Source of the DNA: Bdellovibrionales bacterium
Lineage (GTDB): Bacteria; Bdellovibrionota; Bdellovibrionia; Bdellovibrionales; JAGQZY01
Direction: 5' to 3'
Assembly: GCA_031426555.1 (NCBI GenBank)
Contig: JANPLN010000030.1
Span: 87,792 to 151,791, forward strand
DNA: 64,000 nt
Shown: one piece after another, positions 23,301 to 64,000 of the stretch
Numbering within the stretch: position 1 is the stretch's first letter
How the letters are laid out: the number at the start of each line of letters is the position of its first letter
Made by a program: the position numbers and the translations under genes
Notes under the pieces: generated by a model
What the model saw: the letters and a program-made list of their open reading frames with translations, nothing else
Database searches by the model: none
What the model was told of the DNA's origin: nothing

Positions 23301-23973
23301 TGGCGCGAAGACCTAGGGGATCCATCAATGTGCGCAACCATTTGTTGTCGAGATCGTCTAAGAGCTGTCCCGAAGAGGACCACAGCAGAAACAAGAGCGT
23401 GACAGCGATGTAAATCGGCGCCATTTTTTTGGTTCGAGAACCTATGAAAAAGAAGATAGAACCAAAAATAAAGATGTTTGGCAGTGCAACGGTGAGCAGG
23501 GGAAGTAAATAACCCTTAAGGGTGTTCACGCCGAGCATAGATGGAAGAACAAAAGGGAGTTTGCTCGCAACAAAGACACCCAGGGGAATGCTTGAGAGAA
23601 CGAAGAGCATAAACAACAGGGCGCCAATAAATCGCCCGATCAAAAAATGTTTTACTTTTAGCGGAGTCGAGAAAATAATTTGGTCGATGTTGTTGATAAA
23701 ATCTTTGCAGATGGCCTGTCCAAAAACGGGTGCGATAATAAAAAGATTGAAAGCCGTGAGCAGTGCCACGTAAAGAGTAATGCTCATGGGTGAGTTCACG
23801 AAAACCCGAGCCCCGGTTCCAAAGTTGATTGAAGCTCCGGGAATGGCTCCGCCGGCCGCAAGAGTCATCAACACGGATAGCGCAAAAAACATAACGAAGT
23901 AGATGTAACTCGACATGGAACGATAGCGGATTTTTAGCTCAAAAGCGATATTTGCAATAATGGCTGTTATCAT
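20365..23973 (-). CDS. ABC-2 type permease fused to an M1 family aminopeptidase
   Basis: Two multi-TM permease repeats in the N-terminal ~590 aa; FAQSFPNTIPFSE; HELAH-x18-E; YRKGSVV. Confidence 0.9.
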   Translation of the reverse strand: MITAIIANIAFELKIRYRSMSSYIYFVMFFALSVLMTLAAGGAIPGASINFGTGARVFVNSPMSITLYVALLTAFNLFIIAPVFGQAICKDFINNIDQIIFSTPLKVKHFLIGRFIGALLFMLFVLSSIPLGVFVASKLPFVLPSMLGVNTLKGYLLPLLTVALPNIFIFGSIFFFIGSRTKKMAPIYIAVTLLFLLWSSSGQLLDDLDNKWLRTLMDPLGLRAISETIRYWTVYQQNQQSISFESYFLWNRVLWLGIGFAALATTLINFSKTAKKAKTRKADAVIAEPLQARSINPLRALDLKNIKWAPLLLKQLSFEFLQTVKSIYFVVIVLAGVGYMFITGTQVGKMFGTNAYPVTYNVLDFIGGTFSLFVLIVITLYTGETVWRDRDLKINQIIDALPTPNGVIFAAKFINMVLVTILLLTAVLFSGIAIQLAYGYTNFELTQYLVRLYLVELPSYVNLIALTFFFQVVFKNKYLAHGMIVIYYLIDIFAEALGFEHYLYLFNKKPFPMYSDMNGFGHLFRIFHLYNFYWLFLSAVLVIISYALWHRGTEATSLKKMRTPLRAILTPPLKTALATSILGFLVLGSYLFYQNNVVNEYISRKEAEKRSYDYEKQYKIFDKRPVAQLTSVFANVDIFPEQLKVRAKLKIKFKNTTQQAINDVLISVPDADWSLSFSIPTIEKRDDRLKVVVYTFAQPIQPNQDFEGDYAVTVDESTIKNGTNIGKIHYNGTFFNNFDYFPSFGYQSSSELGERKAREKRGLPPKLRKPAIDDKDQWQNSLLGVNGYWIDFETIVSTTADQIAIAPGYLQKEWTEGSRRYFHYKMDQKIINFYAFLSGRYEVLRDTWNDVNIEIYYHKGHEYNLHRMVNATKKSLDYFTKNFGPYQHKQYRIIEFPRYETFAQSFPNTIPFSEGVGFIAKVDDSKEDDIDYPFYITAHELAHQWWPHQMMGANVQGADMLSESLSQYSALMVMEHEYGREKMKKFLQYELDRYLFGRSKETEYENPLYLAESQQYLHYRKGSVVLYSIKDYMGEDTFNGALKETLGKYSRMAPPYMTSIDFLNVVKSKATDDQKALVTDLMEKIVIFENRPLTAQVEKLSDGTFKVSMNISSEKVYSDKEGKEENKEFSQAMDVGILGKDEKYIYLKKHTIKTGENKFEIVVKEEPFKAGIDPLNVLIDRNSKDNLMNVSHESTTKETKLQ

Positions 23974-24842
23974 TTTACAAATCCCTTGATGTGAGCAAAG
24001 TAATAGTCTTCCAGACTGGCTTCTGCGCGATCAAAGTTTTCGGGGGCCACCGTCGAATAAACCTTTACGATAATTTTCCCGGCTGAAAAACGGGAATTGA
24101 TCACTTGGTACTGCGTTTCGATTGCGGGAACAGATTGTTTCTCAACGATGCGCGACCACACCTTTCCTTCGATATCTTTGAGGGCTTTTTCGGGTGTGGT
24201 TTGCACAAGCACTTTGCCATTATTGATAATTGCAAAATTCTGGCAGAGATCGGCCACATCGCTGACAATGTGAGTGGATAGAATCACGGTCACATCGGAA
24301 CCGATTTCGCTGAGGATATTATAAAAACGCAGACGCTCTTCTGGATCCAAGCCCGCCGTGGGTTCGTCCACGATCAGAAGCTGCGGCTGAGCAATGAGGG
24401 CCTGGGCAATACCAAAGCGTTGTTTCATGCCACCGGAGTAAGTATTGACCGATTTATTTTTGTGTTGCGAAAGATTTGTGAGCTCTAAAAAATGCAGGAC
24501 ACGTTCTTTACGTTGTTGGGGGTCGGTAATTCCTTTCAGCGTGGCGATGTAGTCCAAGAGATCAGTTGCTGAAATTTTAGGATACACGCCAAATTCCTGG
24601 GGCAAATAGCCTAAAACTTTTCGCAGATCTTCTTCTTGCGTCAAGGCGTCTAGATTTTGAAATTGAATGGAACCGGTGTCGGGGGCTTGCAAGGTGGCGA
24701 TGGTGCGCATAAGGGATGATTTTCCAGCCCCGTTTGGTCCAAGGAGGCCAAACATTCCCTTGGGAATTTGCAGATGGATGTTTTGCAGTGCGCGAACACC
24801 ATTGTCGTAGGTTTTACTAACGTTTTCGATCGTTAAGCTCAT
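23970..24842 (-). CDS. ABC transporter ATP-binding protein
   Basis: GPNGAGKS, YSGGMKQR, IVDEPTAGLDP, STH; ATGA overlap with the permease-peptidase. Confidence 0.95.
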   Translation of the reverse strand: MSLTIENVSKTYDNGVRALQNIHLQIPKGMFGLLGPNGAGKSSLMRTIATLQAPDTGSIQFQNLDALTQEEDLRKVLGYLPQEFGVYPKISATDLLDYIATLKGITDPQQRKERVLHFLELTNLSQHKNKSVNTYSGGMKQRFGIAQALIAQPQLLIVDEPTAGLDPEERLRFYNILSEIGSDVTVILSTHIVSDVADLCQNFAIINNGKVLVQTTPEKALKDIEGKVWSRIVEKQSVPAIETQYQVINSRFSAGKIIVKVYSTVAPENFDRAEASLEDYYFAHIKGFVK

Positions 24843-24908
24843 GAGTCCCCCTCAGTAAGCTGGTGTTGTGCCTTACGGGGAGTGGCGATTCAATGGGCGG
24901 GGCGTTGT

Positions 24909-25715
24909 TTACCTGTGAAGGTGAAAGATGCGCTCTTCGGGGAACATTTCCAAGCGAGAGTAATCGGCAAGCATGGCGTTTTCGAACTTTGAAATGCTCT
25001 GCCTGTACAGGCCAAAATATTTAATCATATCAATCATCCAAATGGGCACTTTTGTGGTGGATTTTAGCTCCAGGATCACCATGCTCTGCGTGTCCTCGAA
25101 GGAGGCTGTGTGGTCATAGTGTTGAAGCAGCTGGTCGTTGGGGATCACATTCCAGTCTGTCTCGTGCTGAAAACGCATGTCTCTGTCGAAGGTCACTCGG
25201 GCGTAGTCGTCGACGGTGGAAATATAGGCTTTGCGGCGATATTGTGTTAAAACTTTCGGGCGCGTATTCAGGCGATAGCGCCAGTATAAAAATTCATTCA
25301 CGGCGCCTTGCGATTTTTCATCAATCACAATCTCGCCTTCGAGGATTTTATCAATGTAGAGTCTGAGATCAGTTTCAAAAACTTTTCCGCGAATTTTTCG
25401 AACGACGTCATTGCTCTTCTTCTTAACTTCGAAAAAATACGGAGGTTTCGGGTGCGTTCCATAGGAACGGATTCGCAAATTAAAACGGTTGGCCTGCGAA
25501 AGTTGTTTATAATTAAAAATCTTAAAGTCGTCCGAGTCGAAATAAAGCGAGTTGATCGTGTAAAAGTGATCGGCCTCGAGCTGCGAATAATAGTCCATTT
25601 CGCAATACATCTCTACATACTGCGAAATCGGCGCCACGAGGTCCAAGGGAACCAGATATTTAAGCTCGTAGCGTTCAAGAATTAGCGGCGAAACTGCATC
25701 GACCGTTGGGATCAT
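24909..25715 (-). CDS. VTC-domain (polyphosphate polymerase domain) protein
   Basis: RYELKY, YTINSLYFDS, RFNLRIRSYG, FEVKKK, YRRKAY, RVTFD, ILELK, ISKF. Confidence 0.9.
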   Translation of the reverse strand: MIPTVDAVSPLILERYELKYLVPLDLVAPISQYVEMYCEMDYYSQLEADHFYTINSLYFDSDDFKIFNYKQLSQANRFNLRIRSYGTHPKPPYFFEVKKKSNDVVRKIRGKVFETDLRLYIDKILEGEIVIDEKSQGAVNEFLYWRYRLNTRPKVLTQYRRKAYISTVDDYARVTFDRDMRFQHETDWNVIPNDQLLQHYDHTASFEDTQSMVILELKSTTKVPIWMIDMIKYFGLYRQSISKFENAMLADYSRLEMFPEERIFHLHR

Positions 25716-26923
25716 AAAAGTCCATTCTGGTGAAAGAGAAACGACGACTGAAAGTCTTGGCTTTCGTTGAGCCATTCGGTATAGGACAAAAACAAATCCC
25801 GTTCAGATTCAACGCTGGAAATTTTGGCAGTGAGGTAATCCGCATAAAGTGCGATGGTTGAAATGGGCTCGGAGGCTTTGAGGCGTTTGAAAGTTTTTTC
25901 GATTTGCAGGTCGTATTTGGAAGTGACGTCCAAGTCGAGATCATTGGCCATGCGGATGATTTTGTTGCGAAGCGTGTAGACCTGAACCTTTTTTTCGTTT
26001 TTGTCTAAAAGGCTCTGGCGCTTGGTTTCGATGATTTTGTTCTCAAACTGCCAATCCTGAACCGGGTTCGAGGAGAGAAAAGGCATATTCACGGACACGC
26101 GAAATGTCATCTGCGTTTGATTCTCTCGAGTTTTATCCACCCCAACGCTAAACGTATCGATGAGTCGGTTGTTTTGCGAGGCGGTGTAGGCTTTTAAATA
26201 TTCGAGCTGTTGCAGTTGTAGATCGAAAAGCTGAGTGTATAGTTTTTCGCGGGCGGGGTCGTAACTTTTTACATGTTCCAAAACTTTCACGCGACTCAGA
26301 AGGTTCTCGTCAGCCTTAAATCCGTCGATGGTCCAGTCCGGGTTGATGTTGGCAATGCGTTGCTCAATCTCGGCGCGCTTATCGTGAATCTCGATCACTT
26401 TCTTGCGAAAGTTTTTTATCGCAATGCTCGACTTGATAAAGTCTTTAATGCTGCCGCTTTCCACGCTCAGCAAGGACTTGGACTGGGCTCGTTTTTGCGC
26501 TTCTAAGATAGCGATGGTTTTTTTAGATAGATCTTCAATTTTTTTCGTGTACATGATTTCGATACACAAAAGCAAAAACTCAAGCTGGTCTTGTTGATCC
26601 CACAATATATTTTGTTGCTCAGCGATCAGTTTACTGGTGGAAGCAATACGCTGTTGAGCGATCGCCTCTCGCCCACCACGAGGATTGAACTTGAGAAAGT
26701 ATTCATACCCAGCGCGGTCGTCTTTGCCGGCTTTAACATCGCGGCCATCATCTTTTTCGACAACAAGCTGAATTTGACTAAATCCCATTTCTAAAAAATT
26801 GCCACCTTCGAAGGGTTTTAAGCGAAGATCCTCTTTTTTTTTCTCTAGCAAATCCTGCAGAGTCCATCCATGGCTCAGGGGAGCAAAGGAGGTTATTAAA
26901 AGAATGAGGACCAGACGTTTCAT
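25712..26923 (-). CDS. Secreted alpha-helical protein, divergent TolC/outer-membrane-factor-like
   Basis: Signal peptide; two repeats of a beta-hairpin (e.g. FSVGVD...MTFRVSVNMPF) followed by long helices; ATGA-coupled to the adaptor and VTC genes. Confidence 0.55.
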   Translation of the reverse strand: MKRLVLILLITSFAPLSHGWTLQDLLEKKKEDLRLKPFEGGNFLEMGFSQIQLVVEKDDGRDVKAGKDDRAGYEYFLKFNPRGGREAIAQQRIASTSKLIAEQQNILWDQQDQLEFLLLCIEIMYTKKIEDLSKKTIAILEAQKRAQSKSLLSVESGSIKDFIKSSIAIKNFRKKVIEIHDKRAEIEQRIANINPDWTIDGFKADENLLSRVKVLEHVKSYDPAREKLYTQLFDLQLQQLEYLKAYTASQNNRLIDTFSVGVDKTRENQTQMTFRVSVNMPFLSSNPVQDWQFENKIIETKRQSLLDKNEKKVQVYTLRNKIIRMANDLDLDVTSKYDLQIEKTFKRLKASEPISTIALYADYLTAKISSVESERDLFLSYTEWLNESQDFQSSFLFHQNGLL

Positions 26924-27858
26924 TGTTTGGGCTCTAGATTGGAGGCAGAGGTTGCAGGATTGAGCGATGTTTTTGGTACCGGCAGCAGTTCGTCGGGGAT
27001 CCAAGATTTAGGGTAGATCACAACTTTTTCGCCCATCAAAAACGTATTAGTTTCGGTCAGTTGAACAAGGACTTCGCGACCCCAAACCTTGATGAGCGAT
27101 GAGTTGGTTAACCGCTCTGGCATTTCGACGATGCGCGAGCCAATACTGATCACCCGGCCTGAGAATTTTTTGCGTTTGTCGGCGATGGACGCCAATCTTA
27201 GCTCTTGATTCATTTCGACCTGTGAATAGACGTTTTCGTGAATGTAGGCTTTGATCATGTCGGGTTTTTGCGAAAGGATTGAAAGCAAAGTTGTAAATGG
27301 CGGAACTGTTTGGCCACTTTTAAAATTCACAGCGCCAACGATTCCGCTTTTTTCGGCAAAGATCAAAAGATGATCTTTTTGCGATTGGGCGAATTCCAGT
27401 TCTCTTTTTGCACTTTCAATATCCAGGGACAGTGAGCTCCCTTTTGGAGAAATATCATTGATGGATTCATCCAGAAGATTCTTAATCTCGTTGCGCATAT
27501 TTTTTTCGAATTGAAGTTTTAGAAGAGTGGTTTCCATTTCGCGAATGCGAGCATCGATTTCGTTTTGGTTGAGTTCGGCGAGAAGAGTGCCTTTTTCAAC
27601 AAATTGGCCAGAGATCACATGAATGCGTTTAATTTTAACGGGATACTCAAAGTTGATAGATAGTTCGTAGGAGTCGGCAATGCCAAAAAAGCTCAAGCGA
27701 TTGGTGCTGCCGAGGGTGCTGACCAACGTGATCAACAGGACAGCGAACGCCCAAGCGATCAGGAGAGTTTTGTTGTCGCCTTCGATAAATTGCTGTTTAA
27801 ACTCTTTTAGACCCCATGGGCGTGAAATCCTGGATGCTCGCATCTGTTTAAACCTCAA
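26920..27858 (-). CDS. HlyD/membrane fusion (periplasmic adaptor) protein
   Basis: Single TM, IHVISGQFVEKGTLLAEL, coiled hairpin, IFAEKSGIVGAVNFKSGQTV, GRVISIG. Confidence 0.85.
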   Translation of the reverse strand: MRFKQMRASRISRPWGLKEFKQQFIEGDNKTLLIAWAFAVLLITLVSTLGSTNRLSFFGIADSYELSINFEYPVKIKRIHVISGQFVEKGTLLAELNQNEIDARIREMETTLLKLQFEKNMRNEIKNLLDESINDISPKGSSLSLDIESAKRELEFAQSQKDHLLIFAEKSGIVGAVNFKSGQTVPPFTTLLSILSQKPDMIKAYIHENVYSQVEMNQELRLASIADKRKKFSGRVISIGSRIVEMPERLTNSSLIKVWGREVLVQLTETNTFLMGEKVVIYPKSWIPDELLPVPKTSLNPATSASNLEPKQ

Positions 27859-28531
27859 TAGTGCTTTCCTGCATCAGCAGTTGGGCACCCTTTACTGTTG
27901 GAATCGTTCGAACGTCTTCGATCAGGTGGTCGAAACTGGATTGGGTGTGAAGCTTAAATTGATAGGCATAGTCAAAACGATTTCCCTGGGCCATTTCGCG
28001 AAGGGTGACCAGCGAAAACATTTTGCAATGCTTGTTGAGCGTTGTTTCGAGCTGTTCGCGCGAGTCTTTGCTGGGCTCGAAGTTAAAGCGCAAAAGGCCA
28101 TCAAACTGAGCAGGGGTTACAAACTCCACACGATCCAATACAAGCACACTGGCAATAAAACCCATGCAGCCGACGCAGGCGATGGCGTAAGAGTGCACGC
28201 CGCACGCCACACCCACGGCCATGGCGCCAAATAGAAAAAACATATCGCGCGGGTCTTTCAGGTTTGAACGAAAGCGTAGCAATGAAATCGCACCCATCAT
28301 CCCGAGGCCGCGAGCGAGGTTGTCGCCAATGGCCTGCATGGCGATTGTAGAAACGATCGGGCAAAGGACAAGAGCGTGGAGGAAATTTTTAGAATAGGAG
28401 AGGCCGCGGAAGGTGTAGTTGTAAATCAGTGCGATTCCAACCCCCAAAAGAAACGACAAACAAATACCATAAATAACAGCCCAAATTCCGGCGTTTTCAG
28501 TGGATGTTTGTAAAACTTGGAAATCTAGCAT
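27848..28531 (-). CDS. DUF4956 membrane protein
   Basis: IGDNLARGLGMMGAISLLRFRSNLKDPRD, FGAMAVGVACG; several TMs plus an ACT-like tail. Confidence 0.9.
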   Translation of the reverse strand: MLDFQVLQTSTENAGIWAVIYGICLSFLLGVGIALIYNYTFRGLSYSKNFLHALVLCPIVSTIAMQAIGDNLARGLGMMGAISLLRFRSNLKDPRDMFFLFGAMAVGVACGVHSYAIACVGCMGFIASVLVLDRVEFVTPAQFDGLLRFNFEPSKDSREQLETTLNKHCKMFSLVTLREMAQGNRFDYAYQFKLHTQSSFDHLIEDVRTIPTVKGAQLLMQESTIEV

Positions 28532-28622
28532 CGCTGAACTTATATGTTGATTGTTAAGACTTTGCTAAGATATCCCCTCGACCAAGTAATAAAAATAGAC
28601 CTGTCTAAAATCTACACACTCC

Positions 28623-30176
28623 TTAATTGAGATATGGGCGGGCTTGTTTTAAATAAACTTGGCGCGCGTCGGTGTCTTCGGCATCCACCTTGAATTCGAT
28701 ATCCAAAGAAAAATCAGAAGTCTCTGTTTTGCTCCCTAGAAGAGGGCGGAAGTGCTCAACCGCTTTCAAACACTGATACGAAAGATCTTTGGCTTCTTCG
28801 TCTGTCATCACGGCTGTTGGATTGTCTTGCGGAAGAATCGTTTCCATGTCGTTGGCAATGTTGGACTGCTGCAGAACATTCACAGTGTACTTGTCTTGAT
28901 TGAGGGGATCTTGCTTGTCGTAGAGAACAAGAATTTTTTGCGGGCGAATGCCGGGATTCGGGTTCGCAACACTATGGAAGTCGCCCCGCTGGGCTTCGAT
29001 GTAAACACCCTCGCCAGAAAGCATGGGAACATTGGCAATGTTCTTGGTGACCACAACACCATCTGCCAGCTCGTCGCCAAAGGAGGGGTTGATCTGAATT
29101 CCCATGTAAACATCTTGATGGGGAATGGAAAAGTAATTTCGCTCTTCGAAGGCGCGTAAATTCCAGATCGATCCCCAAACAATTTTGAGAGCCTCTGTGA
29201 GATTCGCGATTTTTTCTTCCTTGCTTAGATCTTTTTTCTTCTTCGTGGCTTTGTAAGCCGCCGACGTGTAAAGACCCGCACCATTAAAATTTGGAAGATC
29301 TTCGGAGTTTGTGGCACTGCGAAGCTTCATGTTGCGCTTCTTACCTTTTTTGTCAGTAATAGTATCAAAAAGTGCGAGCATGTTTTCGATGAGAACAGAA
29401 TCCACAACTGTTTGTGGCGACATAATCAGCGCATTGAGTTCGTTCAATTTAGTGGTGCGATATTCTGTGGCGGCTACGCGCTTCATGAGTGGATCGCGAG
29501 TCACTTTTTGAATCATTGTTTTTACTGCAGGATTACTTTCAACAAATTGACTATAGAAAGAAAATGGCAGCGCATACGAGTAACGAACTACAGTGCGCTC
29601 AGGAGTGTTGAGGGCCTTGGCGAGTTCGGCGTAGTTTGCGGCTTTGGAGCCAACTTTGTCGGCGAAAGTCCAATCCATTTCATCCATTGTTAAAATTCGG
29701 TCGATGGAGAGATCGTACTTCAATTCGACTTTTTGTTTCGCATTGCTATTGTAAAAAGCAAGAGCAGCTTCTTCTGTGCTCGGTGAAATCTTGATGGTAT
29801 CTGGAGCAATCAACTCCATTTCGATATAACTTCCGTCCTGGACGCCGTTAAAGATAGGATTATTAATCCCTCCTTCAAGCTGAGAAATATCCAAATTAGG
29901 AGTTTTGCGCGCGCTGGATTTAATTTGTACGTGCGACAGAAGATTTTGCTGCTGCAGCGTGATTACACCAGAAACCACAGACAGATTCATCGGCAGCTCG
30001 GCAAAAACCGGAATCGCCAGAGGATTCAGCGATTTGTATTTTGCGTTTTCAGAAAGCATATCTTGGGCCGACAAGATCACCAGTTGTCCAATAGCTTTTC
30101 CTGGGTTCATAACCATAGCCTGAGCAAAGCCGCTCAGAGAGTAAAAAAGCGTGAGTGTAAAAATTAAATTTTTCAT
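28623..30176 (-). CDS. Exported PEP-utiliser-type dikinase: His-phosphocarrier domain plus PPDK_N ATP-grasp domain
   Basis: Signal peptide MKNLIFTLTLFYSLSGFAQA; GVIT...LLSHVQIKSSARKTPN; VGSKAANYAEL; RSATNSEDLPNFNGAGLYTS; VWGSIW; DIEF...YLKQARP. Confidence 0.85.
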   Translation of the reverse strand: MKNLIFTLTLFYSLSGFAQAMVMNPGKAIGQLVILSAQDMLSENAKYKSLNPLAIPVFAELPMNLSVVSGVITLQQQNLLSHVQIKSSARKTPNLDISQLEGGINNPIFNGVQDGSYIEMELIAPDTIKISPSTEEAALAFYNSNAKQKVELKYDLSIDRILTMDEMDWTFADKVGSKAANYAELAKALNTPERTVVRYSYALPFSFYSQFVESNPAVKTMIQKVTRDPLMKRVAATEYRTTKLNELNALIMSPQTVVDSVLIENMLALFDTITDKKGKKRNMKLRSATNSEDLPNFNGAGLYTSAAYKATKKKKDLSKEEKIANLTEALKIVWGSIWNLRAFEERNYFSIPHQDVYMGIQINPSFGDELADGVVVTKNIANVPMLSGEGVYIEAQRGDFHSVANPNPGIRPQKILVLYDKQDPLNQDKYTVNVLQQSNIANDMETILPQDNPTAVMTDEEAKDLSYQCLKAVEHFRPLLGSKTETSDFSLDIEFKVDAEDTDARQVYLKQARPYLN

Positions 30177-30185
30177 AGAGACCAC

Positions 30186-31541
30186 CTATTTCGTCAAGCT
30201 CAACGCCGCTGTGTTGAGAGAGGAAGATTTAATTGTGTTATCAGTAAACATTTCAAGCTTTCCGTCCGGCGCGATGCTGATCCACTGCTCGAGACTGCCA
30301 GTAAAGGCCTCTTGCAAGGTCATCGTCGCTACTTCAATCACTTCTGGCATTGTCGCTTTGGCTTTTTCTAAAGATAAAAATTCACTTTGATAATAAAGCC
30401 AGTTGTCTTGAATCAGGAAGCCTTCGCTGTAGATCGTATTGAGCATCGCCTGATACGCAGCAACCGAAGTCACCGTCGACATTCGATTGATTTCCTTGTT
30501 GATAAACTGACAAGATTTGGCGATGAGCGCAAGTGCCGGAGCTTTCTTTTCCCAAGGAATCGACGCAACAATGTTAGTTTTTAGGTCAGCTGTCACGGAC
30601 GAGAGAGCGAGTAGATTCTCGGGATTTATTCCTTGAGCAGCAAACGTTTGCGCCGCAGCTTCCACAGAAATGACGCCAGCCTGTTTTGCTAGAGCTATGA
30701 GTGCCTCGGGTGTGAAGTTGTAATAGCGACGAAGCAACACAAGGATCCGTTGCAAATAATTGTGGCCGTCTTTTTCATACCAAGGATTTTCGCGAAGGAA
30801 TCTTTCGATGCGACCTATCACATCCTCGCTGAGCTGATTATGAATGGTATTGCGAATTTTATAAAGTTCCAGAACTCGGCTGTCTTTTGTCCCATAGGTC
30901 GCAGAAAAGAAGTCATACACCTGTGTGATAAGGTTGCGCGCTTCCGCCAGCTCCGAAGAATCCGCGATGGGGCTTTCTTTAGCGAGCAAAAAAGCTGGAA
31001 GAAATTGATAATCATCATTGATAGAGCTCATGTAAAAATTAAAAAAGTGAGCCGCAAATTTGATCTCGTACTCCATTCCACTGATTCCGCGCATCGCAAA
31101 AGATCTAGCGAGTTTGGAGTCTGGGTAGATTTCCACGTAATAGCGTTCGAGAACCCAGTTTTTAACCATTTCCACAGCTCGCGGCATAGCTGCATTGGCG
31201 ACTGCCGCTAAGGCTTCGTTGTCGATACCGTGATTTGTGCTCAACGCATTCCCATACACAAATTCGCTGTTGAGTTCGTAATAATTGGTTGTGAACAGGT
31301 TGCCAGTGTACATTCCATACTGATCAACGAGCACACGTGCTTGGGCGTTACGAAAAGCAGAGGTAAATAGGTGACCTTTTGGAAAGACATCGTAGGCAGT
31401 TTGGCCCTTAGGTCCCTGGCTCACGTTGGAGCCAAACGGACCCTTGTTCTTTTCGAGAATCGCTTGAAAGTCAGACTGAAGATCGGCGCTGGCTAAATTG
31501 GCGCTGAAGAGAAGTGGTAACAGAAGTACGAGCTTCATCAT
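30186..31541 (-). CDS. Hypothetical exported alpha-helical protein
   Basis: Signal peptide ending ASA; GGAG RBS; tightly packed between neighbours. Confidence 0.8.
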   Translation of the reverse strand: MMKLVLLLPLLFSANLASADLQSDFQAILEKNKGPFGSNVSQGPKGQTAYDVFPKGHLFTSAFRNAQARVLVDQYGMYTGNLFTTNYYELNSEFVYGNALSTNHGIDNEALAAVANAAMPRAVEMVKNWVLERYYVEIYPDSKLARSFAMRGISGMEYEIKFAAHFFNFYMSSINDDYQFLPAFLLAKESPIADSSELAEARNLITQVYDFFSATYGTKDSRVLELYKIRNTIHNQLSEDVIGRIERFLRENPWYEKDGHNYLQRILVLLRRYYNFTPEALIALAKQAGVISVEAAAQTFAAQGINPENLLALSSVTADLKTNIVASIPWEKKAPALALIAKSCQFINKEINRMSTVTSVAAYQAMLNTIYSEGFLIQDNWLYYQSEFLSLEKAKATMPEVIEVATMTLQEAFTGSLEQWISIAPDGKLEMFTDNTIKSSSLNTAALSLTK

Positions 31542-31543
31542 GA

Positions 31544-33310
31544 TTATCTCCCGCCTAAAACTTTATTTTTTTCTTGCTCAAAAGCAGCTTCGCCACAGGC
31601 GTTTTTGTCGCTGTCGGGTGCGCAACCACGCACGCGGCCCATCAGGCGAATACGAATTTTATCGATACCTCTTACGGCGTAAAACTGAACTTTGTCTTGT
31701 TCGTAAACCTGCTCGTAGAGGGGATATTGGCCTTGCATCGCATACGAAGTTTTTGTGATTTTCTTTTTGTAATCGAGGTAGGAGGGGAAAGAAACTTCGG
31801 GATTGTTGAAAACAAACGAATTGCCACGTTTTTCAAAAACATTTTTCGAGCCATACAGTCCTTTGTAATAAGCTTCGCGACTATCTGCACTCAGTAATAG
31901 GTCCGCACCCTCGCGTTTATCTAATCCGTTGGAGCCTTTTGTGTCATAGGTGATTTGATACTCAACTCCCATGACTTCCAGTTCACTATCTCCGTTAATA
32001 TCATAGAGGTCGAAATCTGCTGAGTTGTTACCAAAGAAGTAAACCTGTTTCATTTTTTCATTCTCGACCGGCATAACGTGTCGCATTTCCCACACGTGAC
32101 CGAGCGACAACCGCAAGCAACCGCTGGAGACGCCTCCGCGTTTGACAGCCCAAAGCTGGGTGTGGTCTTCAGGGGCGCTGAGCGCTTCTCTCGTAGCTTT
32201 TGAAAAATTACTACCGTTGAAACGAACAGCTGGATTGTGGAATCCATTATGGATTTCTTCGAAATCCATTTTTGGTGCCCATCCGTAGTAAGGTTCATCA
32301 CGGATGTTATCAACATTTCGATTGCTATGGGCGAGGAACGTCCAGAGGCCAGGTGTTGCAAATTTGGGAATGTCGTTGCCGAAATTATCGTTTGTGGTGC
32401 CCTTAAACGAACCTGTCGGGTAGATTGCCGTGTATTCAGGATAATTTAGGCTACAGGATCCTTGTACGCAGGAAATTGCAGACGCCCACTTTCCGTTTTG
32501 ATCGATGATTTTGATTTGATATTTTACCCCAGTGGCCATGGCAAAAAGCTCTGTGGCCTGCGGAGCGAACTGCTCTGAAGAGTTCGACGCGAGGGCCTGA
32601 GTGGCGGTGGCCTGCAATTTGGCAAGCAGTGCACTGTTCGGCTGCTCAGTGATATTCACACGTCCCCAAACCAAACTATTCAGGGCAATGACTGTTTCTT
32701 CGGCAGTGGCAGTGAAAACAGATTCTGGTCTGCGGCCGTCGAGGAGGGAGGCAACGATTGTTTGCCATCGAGCGTATTCTTTATTGAGATCCAGGTCGAT
32801 CATAAACACGCGACCTGGGTTAAGCGCGATGATTGTTTCTAAGCTTTTTTGATAAAGTTGCTCTGCGGAAAGAGTGTCCTGCACTGAATTTTGAATGTTG
32901 TACTGAGACGAATTTACGATTTGTGAGAAGAGGTCCATTTGTGGAGTGACATCGCCGTTGACGTTCACATTCACAGCGGGTCGACTGCCGCTGGTTGCTT
33001 CTTTGTAAAAGGTGTCGCGATAAACGAGGTCGTACATGTAGTCTTTGATGGTCTGTTCGTCGAGGATCACCGAAACGCGTGTTTGGTTTCCGCGAGCTGT
33101 GCGAATGTGAATTCGCGAAGGATATTCACTGCGTGGTGCGAAGCCTACGTAAAAGCTTGGGTAGTAGCTCTCGGTGGCATCATTGCCTGGGTTCCAGCTG
33201 GTTCCCCAAAAGGGAAGTTGCTTCGCGTAGTCCTGAATTGTTTGAATTTGAGCAGCTGAAGCGACGAGGACGGTGGCGATGAAAAACTTTTTTAAAAGGG
33301 AAAAAAACAT
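31544..33310 (-). CDS. Hypothetical exported protein with an L,D-transpeptidase-like motif
   Basis: GGAG RBS; signal peptide; GFHNP...RGGVSSGCLRL resembles the YkuD (S/T)HGC(I/V)R motif. Confidence 0.6.
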   Translation of the reverse strand: MFFSLLKKFFIATVLVASAAQIQTIQDYAKQLPFWGTSWNPGNDATESYYPSFYVGFAPRSEYPSRIHIRTARGNQTRVSVILDEQTIKDYMYDLVYRDTFYKEATSGSRPAVNVNVNGDVTPQMDLFSQIVNSSQYNIQNSVQDTLSAEQLYQKSLETIIALNPGRVFMIDLDLNKEYARWQTIVASLLDGRRPESVFTATAEETVIALNSLVWGRVNITEQPNSALLAKLQATATQALASNSSEQFAPQATELFAMATGVKYQIKIIDQNGKWASAISCVQGSCSLNYPEYTAIYPTGSFKGTTNDNFGNDIPKFATPGLWTFLAHSNRNVDNIRDEPYYGWAPKMDFEEIHNGFHNPAVRFNGSNFSKATREALSAPEDHTQLWAVKRGGVSSGCLRLSLGHVWEMRHVMPVENEKMKQVYFFGNNSADFDLYDINGDSELEVMGVEYQITYDTKGSNGLDKREGADLLLSADSREAYYKGLYGSKNVFEKRGNSFVFNNPEVSFPSYLDYKKKITKTSYAMQGQYPLYEQVYEQDKVQFYAVRGIDKIRIRLMGRVRGCAPDSDKNACGEAAFEQEKNKVLGGR

Positions 33311-33493
33311 GATTTCTCCATGTTGCGGTTGGTTAATGCAGTTCGCGCAGTATTTAGCCGCACAAAGTCAAAAAAGATACAGCAAATTCAGCTTGAGAAT
33401 TTTTTTCAACGGACTGCGCCAGGGAGAATGAACCTTAATTTCAATAGGATATAGAGTTCGTCACCCGTGACCAGGGCGACTTATAGCAAGATT

Positions 33494-34039
33494 TTAATAG
33501 ATATTTTGCTCGGTTTCGTCGGTGGCCGAAAGGTAAATATCAAAGCCTCGGGCCTTGGCCAGTTGCAAAAATTTTTGCGCGAAAGTCTCGGGGTGCATGG
33601 CATAGTAAATTTGTAATGCACTGAATGCACTCGTATATTGCTCCAGCACGTCGACCTTGAAGTACTCTTTACCCGTGGCATAGCCGAAATTAAAAAGCAG
33701 CTTGTTGGGGCAAGCGGCATTGTAGGCCGCATTGTCGAAGCGGTAACCGGCAAACTCGGCAAACACCGAGAACGCAGCTCCGGAGGCCCAGCTCGCCACG
33801 TCCATCAACTCCCAATAAGTGTGCTCGGGCACGTAGGGCTTTGGTTTGAGATTGTGTTTCTCGAAGCTGATGGCAAAGCTCACTAGTTTTTCGTGATCGA
33901 ATTTTTGTTCATTTTCCCAGCGTATGAGCAACTGAATTTGAGTTGGGTTTAATTGATAGGCACTAGACCAATGGTTCTCTGTGGCGAAGCCAGATGTCGA
34001 AACTAAAAGACACAAAACAAACGTGGAAAAATTTAGCAA
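33494..34039 (-). CDS. Hypothetical secreted protein
   Basis: TTG start after AGGGG; signal peptide ending GFA. Confidence 0.6.
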   Translation of the reverse strand: MLNFSTFVLCLLVSTSGFATENHWSSAYQLNPTQIQLLIRWENEQKFDHEKLVSFAISFEKHNLKPKPYVPEHTYWELMDVASWASGAAFSVFAEFAGYRFDNAAYNAACPNKLLFNFGYATGKEYFKVDVLEQYTSAFSALQIYYAMHPETFAQKFLQLAKARGFDIYLSATDETEQNIY

Positions 34040-34207
34040 AACAGCCCCCTGTTTTAGATAGAACCCTTTAGCGCCCCCGCTGCGGAATTCTTTTTCATTG
34101 AGACTGGATGTAACACAATTCGCGTTAAATAAAGCAAAAATTATGGCTTTCAGCTATGCAGCGAAAAAAATTCAATTTATAGCTAGTGGTAAGAGTGAGG
34201 TGAAGGC

Positions 34208-34786
34208 GTGAAAAAAAAGTTATTCGTAGTCTATATTGGCGGCAGTACAACCCAATCTTTAATTGAGCTGCACGACATGCGCTTTGTGCTGGCAGAAACC
34301 ATCGAAGATACTTTTGAGACGTTAAAAAAAACCTGGTGGGGTGTTCCCGAAAGTTTGCATCTGGACTGCTGGGGGGCGCTGGAGTCGACCGATGGCCACA
34401 AGATTGATGTGGTCGAAACGCCGGTCCAGGCTTCCAAAAAGTTGTACTTTATAAATCTTGGCGCCTATTCCTCGCAGGAGTTTACCGAAGTCCATCGCAA
34501 TTTGTTTTTGGTGGCAGAAACCGAGGCCGAAGCTAAAAAGCGCGCGGTGGCCTCCATTCGAGACTTCGAGCAGGGTCACAAGGACTACTTGTACGAAGTG
34601 GATTCGGCCATTTGTTTAAGCCAGATCGTCAGCAGTCATATGGATGGTAACCAGTTTTTGCATTTGCAGTTGAGTCCGGAGGAGAACTTACCAAAGTTTA
34701 AATTCAACTATGGGTACGTTCCAATTGGTAAAGCAAAAGGCCTCACCGGTCGAGAAGCCTCGGGAGAAGCGGTTGTGACGAAATAG
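34208..34786 (+). CDS. DUF1543 domain protein
   Basis: LFVVYIGG...IELHD..FV, LHLDCW, LYFINLGAY...FTEVH, HKD (two-repeat layout). Confidence 0.85.
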   Translation: MKKKLFVVYIGGSTTQSLIELHDMRFVLAETIEDTFETLKKTWWGVPESLHLDCWGALESTDGHKIDVVETPVQASKKLYFINLGAYSSQEFTEVHRNLFLVAETEAEAKKRAVASIRDFEQGHKDYLYEVDSAICLSQIVSSHMDGNQFLHLQLSPEENLPKFKFNYGYVPIGKAKGLTGREASGEAVVTK

Positions 34787-59965: not shown

Positions 59966-60276
59966 AGGTACACCTCGTTTTTGCAAACACTTTAAGAAGC
60001 CTTAAGTAATTAAGTATTTTTTTAAAATGTATGTTTTAATTACGAAAATCACTTAAAGCTTTTTTTCGCATAGAATGAGGCAATAAATGAGCATTTTAGT
60101 CTAGGTTGACACGGGATGACTCAAGGTGAAAATGGTGCAAAGTCCTGGAGTAACCGCAGTAAGGCTTATCGTTTTGAGTATTGTTGCCAATTTTTAAGGT
60201 TATTTATATTAGTAATCTTGACAATTTTATTTGTGTAGATGAAAAATAATTTTCTTTCATAGACGAATGAGAATAA

Positions 60277-61128
60277 ATGAAGATATTTGTTTTGAAATAT
60301 AAAAAAATAAATGCATCAGTTAAGCTAAGATTTTTTCACCTTTTCAACCATTGTGCGCTCGTATCAGGCCTCTTCCTTTATTCTCCACTATGGCTCCTGT
60401 TAAGTTTTTTCGTATGGTGGTTGATTGGATCGTTGGGCATTAGCATTGGCTTCCATCGTTTACTTTCACACAAATCATTTCGCACCACATCATTTTTAGG
60501 AAACATATTTACATTTATAGGTTGCTTAGCCACTGGTGGAGGGCCCGTAGCTTGGGTGGGTGCTCATCGCATGCACCATATGCATACAGATAAACCAAAA
60601 GATCCTCATTCGTGGAAAGAAATTGGTGCGCTGAGAGTTTACACGCACTACTGGTCTCCGCTAACAATTCGCTATTCTGTGGTGCGAGATCTTCTCAAGA
60701 AGCCGTTTATCGTCTATTTACAGAGAAATTATTTTTTAATAATTTCTCTGTGGTCCGGGACCCTTTACTTATGGGATCCTGTTATAGGAATCTTTGCTTA
60801 TAGTGCGCCTTCAGTTCTTGCTTTTCATGCATTCGGGATGATCAATCTTTTTGGGCATATACATGGGTACCGCTCTTATAATACAATGGATTCATCAACA
60901 AATAGTTGGGTAGCAAATCTCTTAACTTTTGGTGAGGGATGGCATAATAATCACCATAAATATCCTACGTCTTACCGGATAGGGCTTGGTCGGCATGAGT
61001 ACGATATAAGCGCATGGTTTCTGGAAAAATTTAATATTATTTCTAAGGATAATTTTAAAACAGTAGGTGTTTTAGTTGATCGCCATTCCTCCAGTTATGA
61101 AGAGAATATGTATTATGAAAAAGTATAA
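60277..61128 (+). CDS. Membrane fatty-acid desaturase (delta-9/OLE1-like)
   Basis: His boxes HRLLSH, HRMHH, GEGWHNNHH. Confidence 0.92.
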   Translation: MKIFVLKYKKINASVKLRFFHLFNHCALVSGLFLYSPLWLLLSFFVWWLIGSLGISIGFHRLLSHKSFRTTSFLGNIFTFIGCLATGGGPVAWVGAHRMHHMHTDKPKDPHSWKEIGALRVYTHYWSPLTIRYSVVRDLLKKPFIVYLQRNYFLIISLWSGTLYLWDPVIGIFAYSAPSVLAFHAFGMINLFGHIHGYRSYNTMDSSTNSWVANLLTFGEGWHNNHHKYPTSYRIGLGRHEYDISAWFLEKFNIISKDNFKTVGVLVDRHSSSYEENMYYEKV

Positions 61129-61975
61129 GCTACATGGTATGGGATTCGAAGTTAAGGATGTCGACTTTAATAGTTTAACTAAAAATGAATTATTGGAATT
61201 TGGCCATTCCATTGCTAGTGATAATGTTGTTTTAATTCGAAATCAAAATTTAGATGAAAAAAGACTTCTTGAAATATTTGAGACAATAGGAGTTGTTTTA
61301 AAACCGAATCAGTTTTTCATTCATCCAGAATATCCAGGCCTATACCGAGTGACAAACGAGCGTTTGAATGGACAGAAAATAGGCATATTTGCTGACAAAG
61401 AGCTGGATTGGCACAGCAATGGTAATGGGCGACCAAGTGGCAAAGAATGCTGTGTGGCGCTTTATTGTGTTGAACCTGGAATTAATAGTGTGACTAGTTT
61501 TTGCGATACAAGGCGAGCCTATGAGGATCTTCCTGCAGATATTAAGGTCCTCGTTGAGGACATTGATTGCACTTTTCAATTTAAAAACAAAACATTTTAC
61601 CATTTAGATGAAGATGATAGAGAGCTTATGATGTTTGAAAATAAGCATTTATTTCCTGAGGGAATTACTAAACCGCTCGTCTACGAGCACCCTTTTGATA
61701 AAACAAAAGGACTTTACTTTGTATTTCATTATATTCAAAAAATGTGGAGAAGATCCGGGGAGCGCCTCGATGAAGAATGGCTGCGATCTTATTTAATGGA
61801 CCATGTTTTTCAAGAAAAATATATATACAGGCATGATAGATGGCAAAAGGGAGATCTTATATTCATGGATCAGTTTCATTCCATTCATAAAAGGAATGCT
61901 GTTGAAGGTAGTAGATTTTTATATAGGGCCACATTGGACTATAGGCACTCATGGAGAAAATTTGGAAATAAATAA
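61115..61975 (+). CDS. TauD/TfdA family dioxygenase-like protein
   Basis: VVLIRNQ, LDWHSNG, TSFCDTRRAYEDLP, PLVYEHP, WQKGDLIFMDQFHSIHKR. Confidence 0.85.
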   Translation: MKKYKLHGMGFEVKDVDFNSLTKNELLEFGHSIASDNVVLIRNQNLDEKRLLEIFETIGVVLKPNQFFIHPEYPGLYRVTNERLNGQKIGIFADKELDWHSNGNGRPSGKECCVALYCVEPGINSVTSFCDTRRAYEDLPADIKVLVEDIDCTFQFKNKTFYHLDEDDRELMMFENKHLFPEGITKPLVYEHPFDKTKGLYFVFHYIQKMWRRSGERLDEEWLRSYLMDHVFQEKYIYRHDRWQKGDLIFMDQFHSIHKRNAVEGSRFLYRATLDYRHSWRKFGNK

Positions 61976-62630
61976 CTTTACCTTTTGCCCATTCTTGGTC
62001 GACATAAGTGAAGAAGCCATGATCCTGATCCACCGAGAAGTTCTGTCTTTGAGCGAGGAGCATTGGCATTTTAATACCTTTAGAAATTGTAACATGTTGT
62101 CTATTTACAATCCGGGTGGCGTTCTAGGGCAAGTTTCTCTGAGAAAAAAGGGTGATTATCAGTTCACTGCGATAATAGAAAAGTGTCCAAATCTCAAATC
62201 GTTTATTGAGGAGAGGGTGTTTAACTGGATGGTGCCACGTGGCCGGATAACTATTTTGAGAACTCGGCCGCAAGTAGAAATGAAAGTGCATCTTGATTGT
62301 AGCTTACAGGAAGTCGGGACACCTCAATTTAAATGGCGATTTGTAATCTCTGGTGAAGTTGATAAGCTTTATTTTTTAGATGCAAACGGTGAGAAAGTCT
62401 ATATTAGCTCAAAGTATCGATGCTATGTTCTTGATGGAAGTCATCCACACAGCGTTGATGTGAGTCATTTTGAAAAATTAACTCTATGCATAGGTAGTCC
62501 TTGGAAGGGGAGTTTGGTAGAGGGGTTGTATAAAAATCATCTTGATTTTGAAAACGCGTTGCAAGTTTCTCGACCTAAAACTCGAAGCGCTTGGATTGAT
62601 CCTATTTTACTACATGAGAATTTGCGGTGA
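61962..62630 (+). CDS. Putative Fe/2OG cupin (AspH-like) protein
   Basis: GGAG RBS then TTG 61962; GRITILRT, VHLDC, LDGSHPHSV. Confidence 0.65.
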   Translation: MEINNFTFCPFLVDISEEAMILIHREVLSLSEEHWHFNTFRNCNMLSIYNPGGVLGQVSLRKKGDYQFTAIIEKCPNLKSFIEERVFNWMVPRGRITILRTRPQVEMKVHLDCSLQEVGTPQFKWRFVISGEVDKLYFLDANGEKVYISSKYRCYVLDGSHPHSVDVSHFEKLTLCIGSPWKGSLVEGLYKNHLDFENALQVSRPKTRSAWIDPILLHENLR

Positions 62631-63583
62631 AATTATTTTATAAACTTTTAGACGTGGGTGAAAATGATCAAAAAAAAATACGTGAAGAGGTTGTTTTAGG
62701 TCAAAAATTTTTTGCACCCATAAAGGCAGGTTTTGGGCAATACGCTTCTCAAACAAAAGAAAGAGAAATCATTAGTCTTCGAAACTTAAGAGAAGCACAT
62801 GAGTCTCGTAAATATCCGGATATTTTTCCAGCAAAAAATGAAGAAGTAGCAGATTGGAACGAGCTGATTGGTTACTTTCCATTTACTCGAGAATTCGTAT
62901 CGAAATTATTAATCTTTTTTGCCGCTCGATACCTGGGCAAGGTTATGTTTGCCAAAATGCCACCGGGCTGTATGATGAATTGGCATATTGATCCCTATCC
63001 GATATACAGTGGTTTTTCTCGGCTGCATATCCCATTATTTTCCGAGCAAGGAGCTTCCGACTTTTATACAGAACAAGGCAATTTTTCGATGCAAATTGGC
63101 TCGACTTATTTGTATGACACCGCACTCGTGCATACGGCAAAGAATAACAGTAATAAAGATAGAATACATTTGATTGTTGACGTTCTTCTTCCAAGGGAAA
63201 ACTTTTTTAATCAGGTTAGTTATTTTTGGGAAGAAATATATTTAGAGTTTGATCAAGAAGTAAATCAAGGATCGGCTATAGAAAAATTTGGTCTCGATTA
63301 TTCAGCTGAATTTTTAAGTGCACAAAAGAAGTATGGTACTCTGCTGGTCTTTATGAGCATTAGTTCCTTATTTAGTAGAAAAATAAAGCTTGCTTTTCTT
63401 TGGTGCTCCTTAGTGGGAAGAGATAAATTTTTTGAACAATGTAATTTACACAGACATTTTAAAGTTGCCTCTCGTAAATTTTCTTCTACTAGCGGAATTT
63501 GTCATTGGGAAGAGAGTTACGCATTTGTTAAAGATCGGTGCCTCGATAGTAAAGTCATTGTTTGTCGGAGAGATTATCAATGA
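62627..63583 (+). CDS. AspH-domain protein with C-terminal extension
   Basis: MPPG...WHIDP, RLHIPL, DTALVHTAKN, RIHLIVD; GTGA overlap. Confidence 0.85.
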   Translation: MKLFYKLLDVGENDQKKIREEVVLGQKFFAPIKAGFGQYASQTKEREIISLRNLREAHESRKYPDIFPAKNEEVADWNELIGYFPFTREFVSKLLIFFAARYLGKVMFAKMPPGCMMNWHIDPYPIYSGFSRLHIPLFSEQGASDFYTEQGNFSMQIGSTYLYDTALVHTAKNNSNKDRIHLIVDVLLPRENFFNQVSYFWEEIYLEFDQEVNQGSAIEKFGLDYSAEFLSAQKKYGTLLVFMSISSLFSRKIKLAFLWCSLVGRDKFFEQCNLHRHFKVASRKFSSTSGICHWEESYAFVKDRCLDSKVIVCRRDYQ

Positions 63584-64000
63584 GAGTGGTAAACTTATAT
63601 GATTTTAGCGAGAATCGTTTTGTTGCCATTCTAGAAAAATTAATAGAGACGTCTTCTGACAAAAATAAGGATTGGTTCCCTGTTTTAATTAAAAATTACA
63701 AACAGTATTGTGATTGGTTTTTTGTCTTAGGGCCGCAGGACCAATTTATTGCATTTTCAACAATTCAAGCTTATCAGCCCCGCTGCTTTAGACTGCTAAC
63801 AAGGTGCTACATTGTCCCGGAATTTCGGCGAGCAGTATTGCCTAAATTTGACAAGGAAATGAGCCCAGGTTCATATATGGTAAAGGCACAGCTTGAGTAT
63901 TTAAATCATAAATATGACAGTGTTTTTATATCATTAGAGCATATTCGGCGCCGAGCTGCCATCATGCGAATGGCAAAAAAAATACACTTTTCAACGGGAT
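63580..64000 (+). CDS. GNAT-fold-like protein, truncated by the window end
   Basis: ATGA overlap; MRVVNLYD...FIAFSTIQ...FRLLTRCYIVPEFRR; open to the end of the window. Confidence 0.55.
   Translation, partial: MRVVNLYDFSENRFVAILEKLIETSSDKNKDWFPVLIKNYKQYCDWFFVLGPQDQFIAFSTIQAYQPRCFRLLTRCYIVPEFRRAVLPKFDKEMSPGSYMVKAQLEYLNHKYDSVFISLEHIRRRAAIMRMAKKIHFSTG

Follow-up and report, generated by a model that had tools for sequence, protein, structure and literature searches.

A conserved VTC, DUF4956, adaptor and TolC-fold gene block in Bdellovibrionota: a candidate polyphosphate exporter

The window analyzed here is a stretch of 64,000 nucleotides from a Bdellovibrionales bacterium (GenBank assembly GCA_031426555.1, contig JANPLN010000030.1, positions 87,792 to 151,791), and this report concerns a block of four genes within it, encoding a DUF4956 membrane protein, an HlyD-type adaptor, a divergent outer-membrane factor (OMF) and a VTC-domain enzyme. 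The block is a real, conserved and apparently undescribed module, as no description of a four-gene unit with adaptor and OMF was found in the literature searched, which mostly lay outside subscription journals. Its four products likely form one exporter. In the reading that I favor, to which I assign a probability of roughly 0.45, the VTC enzyme would make polyphosphate from cytoplasmic ATP, DUF4956, the adaptor and the OMF would export it, and secreted kinase-like proteins would draw on it. This reading is built on the observed gene order, conservation, family assignments, active-site residues and kinase linkage, and on structural models for the TolC fold and the DUF4956 layout.

The genes of the block follow one another on the minus strand, in the order DUF4956, adaptor, OMF and VTC:

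28531-27848, minus strand: DUF4956 protein, 227 amino acids (PF16316, E 6.9e-15)
27843-26920 (ATG start), minus strand: HlyD/MFP-type adaptor (HlyD_D23, E 1.2e-9)
26923-25712, minus strand: protein with a predicted TolC fold (the OMF), 403 amino acids (no Pfam family; fold model)
25715-24909, minus strand: VTC-domain enzyme, 268 amino acids (PF09359, E 4.7e-46)

The original prediction, made from the nucleotide sequence, had described four overlapping genes. ATGA overlaps are indeed present at the adaptor/OMF (26920-26923) and OMF/VTC (25712-25715) junctions, whereas the 11-nucleotide overlap claimed between DUF4956 and the adaptor exists only if the adaptor starts at a TTG at 27858 (312 amino acids). 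A 4-nucleotide gap is more likely at this junction, because the ATG at 27843 (307 amino acids) has a GAGG upstream and agrees with the starts called in two loci of the same genus. The claim that the block contains no ATP-binding cassette (ABC), resistance-nodulation-division (RND) or major facilitator superfamily (MFS) pump also stands, none being found among its genes with Pfam. A scan of positions 23800-34300 for promoter-like sites (14, against 12.0 in shuffles) and terminator-like sites (9, against 12.9) was uninformative.

Conservation of the block was assessed in 301 genomes of the phylum, 58 of which hold VTC. A profile of the OMF matches 42 of these genomes at E up to 1e-5; I refer to the 36 that match at better than 1e-40 as cassette genomes, leaving out six weak matches, and all 36 also hold VTC. 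A total of 75 genomic VTC loci were mapped, of which 73 were classed after one duplicate and one locus lacking a VTC open reading frame call had been dropped. The arrangement is not due to chance, since in 35 of the 73 the four genes share a strand and lie no more than 4.5 kb from VTC. VTC and DUF4956 only are found at 27 loci, adaptor and OMF with no DUF4956 seen at four, and six loci are partial. Among metagenomes, the best 80 of 385 hits yielded 78 loci once two duplicates were dropped (four lack a VTC label), and the full block is present in 30, in several gene orders, many of the remaining loci being short contigs; at two of the metagenome loci a PiT (PHO4) phosphate transporter gene lies between OMF and VTC (L150:6392-7954 and L154:6368-7954). 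The joint conservation of the four genes suggested by the original prediction is thus borne out, with 36 of the 301 genomes and 30 of the 78 metagenome loci carrying the cassette. Furthermore, in a quick tree with many long branches among the other VTC sequences, the adaptor-linked ones form a single branch of 42 rows (41 adaptor-linked and one on a 2-kb contig), with a Shimodaira-Hasegawa-like approximate likelihood ratio test (SH-aLRT) value of 99. A single-protein scan of genome contigs gave four loci, and a plasmid search gave three distant matches and was uninformative.

The VTC protein matches PF09359 at 157.7 bits (cut-off 23), and consists of the VTC domain only, without SPX, DUF202, signal peptide or hydrophobic membrane segment. 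A profile built from 14 sequences matches yeast Vtc4 (3g3q, E 1.5e-26), Vtc2 and Vtc3; CYTH hydrolase structures are absent from its matches up to an E of 1. In the excerpt available of a cryo-electron microscopy preprint, the ligand-binding residues named for Vtc4 are K200, R264, R266, K281, Y359, R361, E426, S457 and K458 (10.1101/2023.01.27.525886). On the profile alignment to Vtc4, where I counted the yeast positions by hand, all nine have equivalents in the window's protein (K19, R81, R83, K98, Y159, R161, E216, S242 and K243), and these are present in 40-41 of the 41 aligned adaptor-linked VTCs. The related hydrolases are described, in the accessible part of a structural study, as binding a second metal through three glutamates, a site absent from Vtc4 (PMC4641920). 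Two of these three are replaced here by R15 and K218, as in Vtc4, and 40-41 of the 41 adaptor-linked sequences show the motifs R-x-E-x-K, not E-x-E-x-K, and E216-x-K218, not E-x-E. The site of CYTH tripolyphosphatases such as AtTTM3 and YgiF, an E-x-E plus a third glutamate, is not reproduced in the VTC protein. A polymerase rather than a hydrolase is the better reading of these residues, although not a proven one. The same genome also possesses PPK1 and PPK2, and storage polyphosphate therefore needs no VTC in this organism.

A second VTC and DUF4956 pair is found in the same genome (L023:6737-10524, contig C62), without adaptor or OMF. It is followed by a 381-amino-acid CYTH-domain protein with a hydrophobic N-terminus, and is flanked by a divergent arylsulfotransferase-like gene; an exported CYTH enzyme could act on the product at this locus.

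For the OMF, sequence searches returned six close proteins and nine representatives, with no PDB match by profile. Because these searches reached only close homologues, a fold model was needed. The AlphaFold model, computed from 47 sequences (predicted local distance difference test (pLDDT) score 82.8, predicted template-modeling score 0.74), comprises two repeats of a beta-hairpin and a long helix. The top Foldseek match is TolC (7ng9, E 1.5e-10, template-modeling score 0.58), in agreement with the TolC-like product proposed originally, and those listed among the 40 matches at E up to 0.001 (similar chains omitted) are TolC, OprM, CusC and their relatives. The protein has a signal-peptide-like N-terminus, and falls in an Atlas OEP cluster at 0.97, in which 11% of the members carry OEP; Pfam OEP itself matches 4 of the 47 homologues at E up to 0.05. 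On the strength of the model, I assign the product as a divergent outer-membrane factor. An NCBIfam match to IS1380 (22 bits, cut-off 180) was rejected as noise.

The adaptor matches HlyD_D23 at 38.2 bits (cut-off 30), and RND_mfp at E 7e-15, below the cut-off of that model, and possesses one N-terminal membrane anchor. Many homologous adaptors are 530-670 amino acids long, with an additional C-terminal domain weakly matching DUF3616 or Phytase-like (for example L034:5060-6808); this propeller-like domain is absent from the window's adaptor. At one locus (L148), the gene of a short adaptor is separated from that of the OMF by another gene, encoding 297 amino acids.

In the DUF4956 model (pLDDT 78.9), the membrane part has five helices and is followed by a C-terminal ACT-fold domain. 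R86 and R88 are invariant in the alignment, and K92 nearly so; with five helices and the ACT domain inside, these three residues would face the cytoplasm. A weak match to MgtC is seen in 39 of 51 DUF4956 homologues, and the window's protein scores 16.9 bits against this family, below the cut-off of 31.4. The ACT fold matches the C-terminal domain of MgtC with a Z of 7.9, among many ACT domains reaching up to 9.7. No Vtc1 chain was returned by the fold searches, whose lists were filled by the ACT domain, so that the membrane part was barely probed.

Taken as one machine, these components would work as follows. VTC would build polyphosphate from cytoplasmic ATP while docked under an oligomer of DUF4956, with R86, R88 and K92 lining the cytoplasmic entrance. 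The DUF4956 oligomer would pass the chain through the inner membrane. Chain growth itself, instead of an ABC or RND pump, would drive export, and the path would continue across the outer membrane by way of the adaptor and OMF. Where VTC and DUF4956 occur without adaptor and OMF, release would be into the periplasm or cell wall. Secreted kinase-like proteins would then use the product, either directly or after regeneration of ATP.

This last step is suggested by the genes surrounding the block. In the window itself the neighbors are the following:

28623-30185, minus strand: secreted-type PPDK_N (ATP-grasp) protein, 520 amino acids, 91 nucleotides upstream of the DUF4956 gene
30186-31541, minus strand: secreted-type protein, 451 amino acids (no informative Pfam/NCBIfam match)
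31544-33310, minus strand: secreted-type protein, 588 amino acids (no informative Pfam/NCBIfam match)
24842-23970, minus strand: ABC ATPase, beginning 66 nucleotides after the VTC stop
23973-20365, minus strand: ABC-2 permease fused to an M1 peptidase domain, 1202 amino acids

The first three form a trio co-directional with the block. More generally, secreted phosphotransferase-like proteins of four kinds accompany the cassette: CotH, a Fam20-like family, a second kinase-like family, and a PPDK-like family. These families were found by clustering flanking proteins and were defined after sight, so that the locus counts are descriptive. The original prediction had missed this link, which suggests a purpose for the block, yet also raises the alternative that ATP itself is exported.

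The PPDK-like protein begins with a sequence resembling a signal peptide, and close to its N-terminus has an invariant L-S-H motif, which I take to mark a phospho-His domain; the order of His motif and then ATP-grasp recalls that of glucan water dikinases. It is a candidate client of the cassette. Relatives of lipoprotein type are encoded upstream of the adaptor, and co-directional with it, in L163 and L170. The 451- and 588-amino-acid proteins occur near VTC in six and five loci respectively, the window included, and accompany the PPDK-like gene at the mapped loci, making them possible substrates or partners. Genes with a Beta-lactamase2 fold lie between cassette and PPDK-like gene at L017:11839-12789, L019:13057-14127, L020:286-1302 and L063:10360-11346, and are absent from this position in the window.

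Fam20-like proteins are ∼450-550 amino acids long and were labeled from an Atlas score of 0.91 to Fam20C, FJX1 and FAM198 clusters, with 160 shared features, below the usual 170. They possess D-R-x-x-N and D-N-D motifs, on which the label also rests; their alignment gave no PDB or Pfam match. The gene is often found beside that of a small H-C-x5-S protein, one member of which weakly matches a tyrosine phosphatase, and a metallophosphoesterase gene. In the window's genome, a divergent pair of a gene for a secreted-type Fam20-like kinase (474 amino acids, 242145-240721) and an H-C-x5-S phosphatase-like gene (219 amino acids) is located at G000:C15:240721-242986, and a metallophosphoesterase homologue on contig C23; the same pair adjoins the cassette in other genomes. 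The second kinase-like family (∼1100 amino acids, some members 500-550) was recognized from motifs by eye only. Secreted-type proteins of ∼1100-1200 amino acids with kinase-like motifs and no Pfam match lie beside VTC loci in several families, at L056:12558-16010, L057:8812-12129 and L027:10052-13552. CotH is the usual partner of adaptor-less loci, being present in 14 of the 27 loci without adaptor and in 10 of the 30 four-gene metagenome blocks. No CotH (PF08757) match was found in the window's genome, which is 100% complete by markers.

At least one kinase-like gene is present in the fetched stretch at 24 of the 35 four-gene genome loci, 18 of the 27 loci with VTC and DUF4956 only, and 17 of the 30 four-gene metagenome loci. 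I then counted genomes carrying at least one of three families, Fam20-like, CotH and close PPDK-like, the second kinase-like family being outside this count: 32/36 cassette genomes do so, against 13/22 other VTC genomes and 18/243 genomes without VTC. For the PPDK-like family, close was defined as E below 1e-200, which keeps 10 of the 15 matching genomes, and nine of these 10 carry the cassette. CotH is detected by an independent Pfam model, and 18 of the 23 CotH genomes hold VTC, compared with a base rate of 58/301; CotH is also present in the three named control genomes that have VTC. The kinase-like proteins mostly have hydrophobic N-termini (CotH 25/28, Fam20-like 15/21, second family 12/12, PPDK-like 7/8), against 2/144 for VTC.

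A number of observations weigh against polyphosphate export by this route. In the enzyme, E17 is one of the glutamates of the hydrolase patch and is invariant (71/71 rows with a residue there), while Vtc4 has T198. The lysine equivalent to K458 is not diagnostic of a polymerase, since the plant hydrolase AtTTM3 has one, as noted in the part of that study available (PMC4641920). DUF4956 shows no Vtc1 chain by profile, and no DUF202 is present among the families listed for 51 DUF4956 proteins, so that a channel role is drawn by analogy only, without a sequence match to the Vtc1/DUF202 pore. The net charge of OMF homologues ranges from -18 to +24 without a tendency to be basic; this whole-protein value is a crude proxy, and does not support the basic lumen that I had considered. 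At one genome locus (L060) and two metagenome loci, DUF4956, adaptor and VTC occur together but no OMF was seen. Co-occurrence is inflated on two counts, as 16 of the 36 cassette genomes belong to one genus, and neighbors of the cassette supplied the sequences for two of the three kinase profiles. Of the 45 genomes with a Fam20-like gene, 15 gave no match to VTC, and in 4 of the 36 cassette genomes none of the three kinase families searched was detected. Finally, characterized CotH, Fam20 and ATP-grasp enzymes use ATP, and are not known to use polyphosphate.

This last point leads to the first and main alternative, that the cassette exports a nucleotide, either ATP or a nucleoside polyphosphate made by VTC, to supply secreted ATP-dependent enzymes; VTC would then bind or extend the nucleotide and feed it to DUF4956. 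The linked proteins have ATP-type folds (CotH, Fam20-like at an Atlas score of 0.91, and the ATP-grasp PPDK_N), most of them have hydrophobic N-termini, and the additional invariant E17 may mean a chemistry unlike that of Vtc4. However, none of the Vtc4 polymerase residues has been lost, although mere ATP export would have no use for the complete set; a nucleotide, being small, would escape into the medium through an open TolC duct; and the 15 kinase genomes lack VTC. I consider nucleotide export unlikely.

A second alternative is that VTC and DUF4956 deliver polyphosphate to the periplasm only, and that adaptor and OMF either have a scaffolding role or carry a different cargo out, such as a phosphorylated protein or polysaccharide, or a metal-phosphate complex. 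The 27 loci without adaptor or OMF imply that the pair works alone, the C-terminal domain of many adaptors (the one with weak DUF3616/Phytase-like matches) would sit in the periplasm, and lamin-tail, phosphatase and arylsulfotransferase-like neighbors point to surface modification. Against this, the genes for adaptor and OMF are placed next to those for DUF4956 and VTC or wedged in between, stop codons overlapping start codons, and are tied to one VTC branch, and no other conserved inner-membrane partner for the adaptor was found. Delivery to the periplasm alone appears slightly less probable again than nucleotide export.

More improbable is a third alternative, in which VTC would act as a triphosphatase of the CYTH type or as a nucleotide hydrolase, DUF4956 would be a regulator or small-solute transporter resembling MgtC, and no polymer would be made. 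The retention of E17 and the MgtC-like membrane domain of DUF4956, joined to an ACT domain, fit this possibility. In addition, the literature searched contained no report of polymerase activity measured for a bacterial VTC protein. However, the hydrolase motifs E-x-E-x-K and E-x-E are replaced here, and the profile recovers Vtc4, Vtc2 and Vtc3, with no structure of a CYTH hydrolase among its matches (E up to 1). The original prediction had itself named a VTC protein that is only a CYTH-type triphosphatase as its possible undoing; what is found instead is a protein with all nine Vtc4 ligands and only E17 left of the three hydrolase glutamates.

The original prediction did not mention the ABC pair (24842-20365), and the notion that it is the true pump for adaptor and OMF, with VTC and DUF4956 as bystanders, is rejected as very improbable and largely refuted by the neighborhood survey: the pair is on the same strand and 66 nucleotides downstream, but a co-directional ABC gene adjoins the block in only 3 of the 41 adaptor-linked loci, all in the window's genus, two members of which (G004 and G005) have the permease gene without a VTC match. 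No conserved ABC, RND or MFS pump was found among the neighbors scanned. Elsewhere in the window, positions 60001-64000 have a GC content of 0.36-0.37, against ∼0.46 in the remainder, and are possibly acquired DNA.

Polymerase-driven export through the four-gene block can be compared to several known systems. Yeast VTC couples polyphosphate synthesis to membrane transit, according to the excerpt available (10.1101/2023.01.27.525886). VTC is presented as the eukaryotic type of polymerase in a review (PMC12526157). The eukaryotic complex (Vtc4/Vtc3/Vtc1; 3g3q, 8i6v, 7ytj) has a homologous tunnel domain, whose triphosphate and Mn2+ ligands are kept here. In contrast to it, the VTC described here is a stand-alone protein without SPX or membrane part and has E17 where yeast has T198, its membrane partner, DUF4956, is MgtC-like, carries an ACT domain and gave no match to the Vtc1 pore, and adaptor and OMF are added. 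In the accessible portions of two reports, Gram-positive pel loci combine CotH, polyphosphate polymerase and DUF4956 accessory genes without a stated function (10.1101/768473), and the C. perfringens NELoc-2 locus lists VTC-domain and CotH genes (PMC2879425). As far as these portions go, such loci share with the block a VTC and DUF4956-type membrane gene beside a kinase, but list no adaptor or OMF; the window's genome differs in lacking a CotH match, and has instead a PPDK-like gene adjoining the block and, on a separate contig, a Fam20-like one.

Tripartite exporters (AcrAB-TolC, MacAB-TolC, type I secretion) likewise possess a membrane-anchored adaptor and a TolC-fold outer-membrane protein. 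Here, however, the block has no conserved ABC, RND or MFS partner, and the OMF is too divergent for Pfam OEP in 43 of the 47 homologues. In synthase-dependent exopolysaccharide secretion (alginate, cellulose, Pel), an inner-membrane polymerase drives export of its own product, and alginate Alg44 holds an adaptor-like domain. The proposed polymer is in contrast inorganic, the catalytic and membrane parts are encoded by separate genes, and the exit would be a TolC fold and not a porin. The block would work like yeast VTC joined to a tripartite duct, yet is a member of neither class, because its catalytic chain has no SPX or membrane domain and it has no ABC, RND or MFS pump.

A broader and rather doubtful proposal is that this polymerase-driven tripartite exporter powers a secreted phosphorylation system, with Fam20-like, CotH and dikinase-like writers and matching secreted phosphatases, in which polyphosphate or nucleoside polyphosphate replaces ATP, as a bacterial counterpart of secretory-pathway phosphorylation. 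In these predators, such a system could act at the cell surface or inside the prey. If polyphosphate export by the block is true, it adds a tripartite exporter energized by polymer synthesis, and not by an ABC or proton pump, and gives the uncharacterized bacterial VTC and DUF4956 families a function. It would also provide a testable answer to the question of where secreted bacterial kinases obtain their phosphoryl donor outside the cytoplasm.

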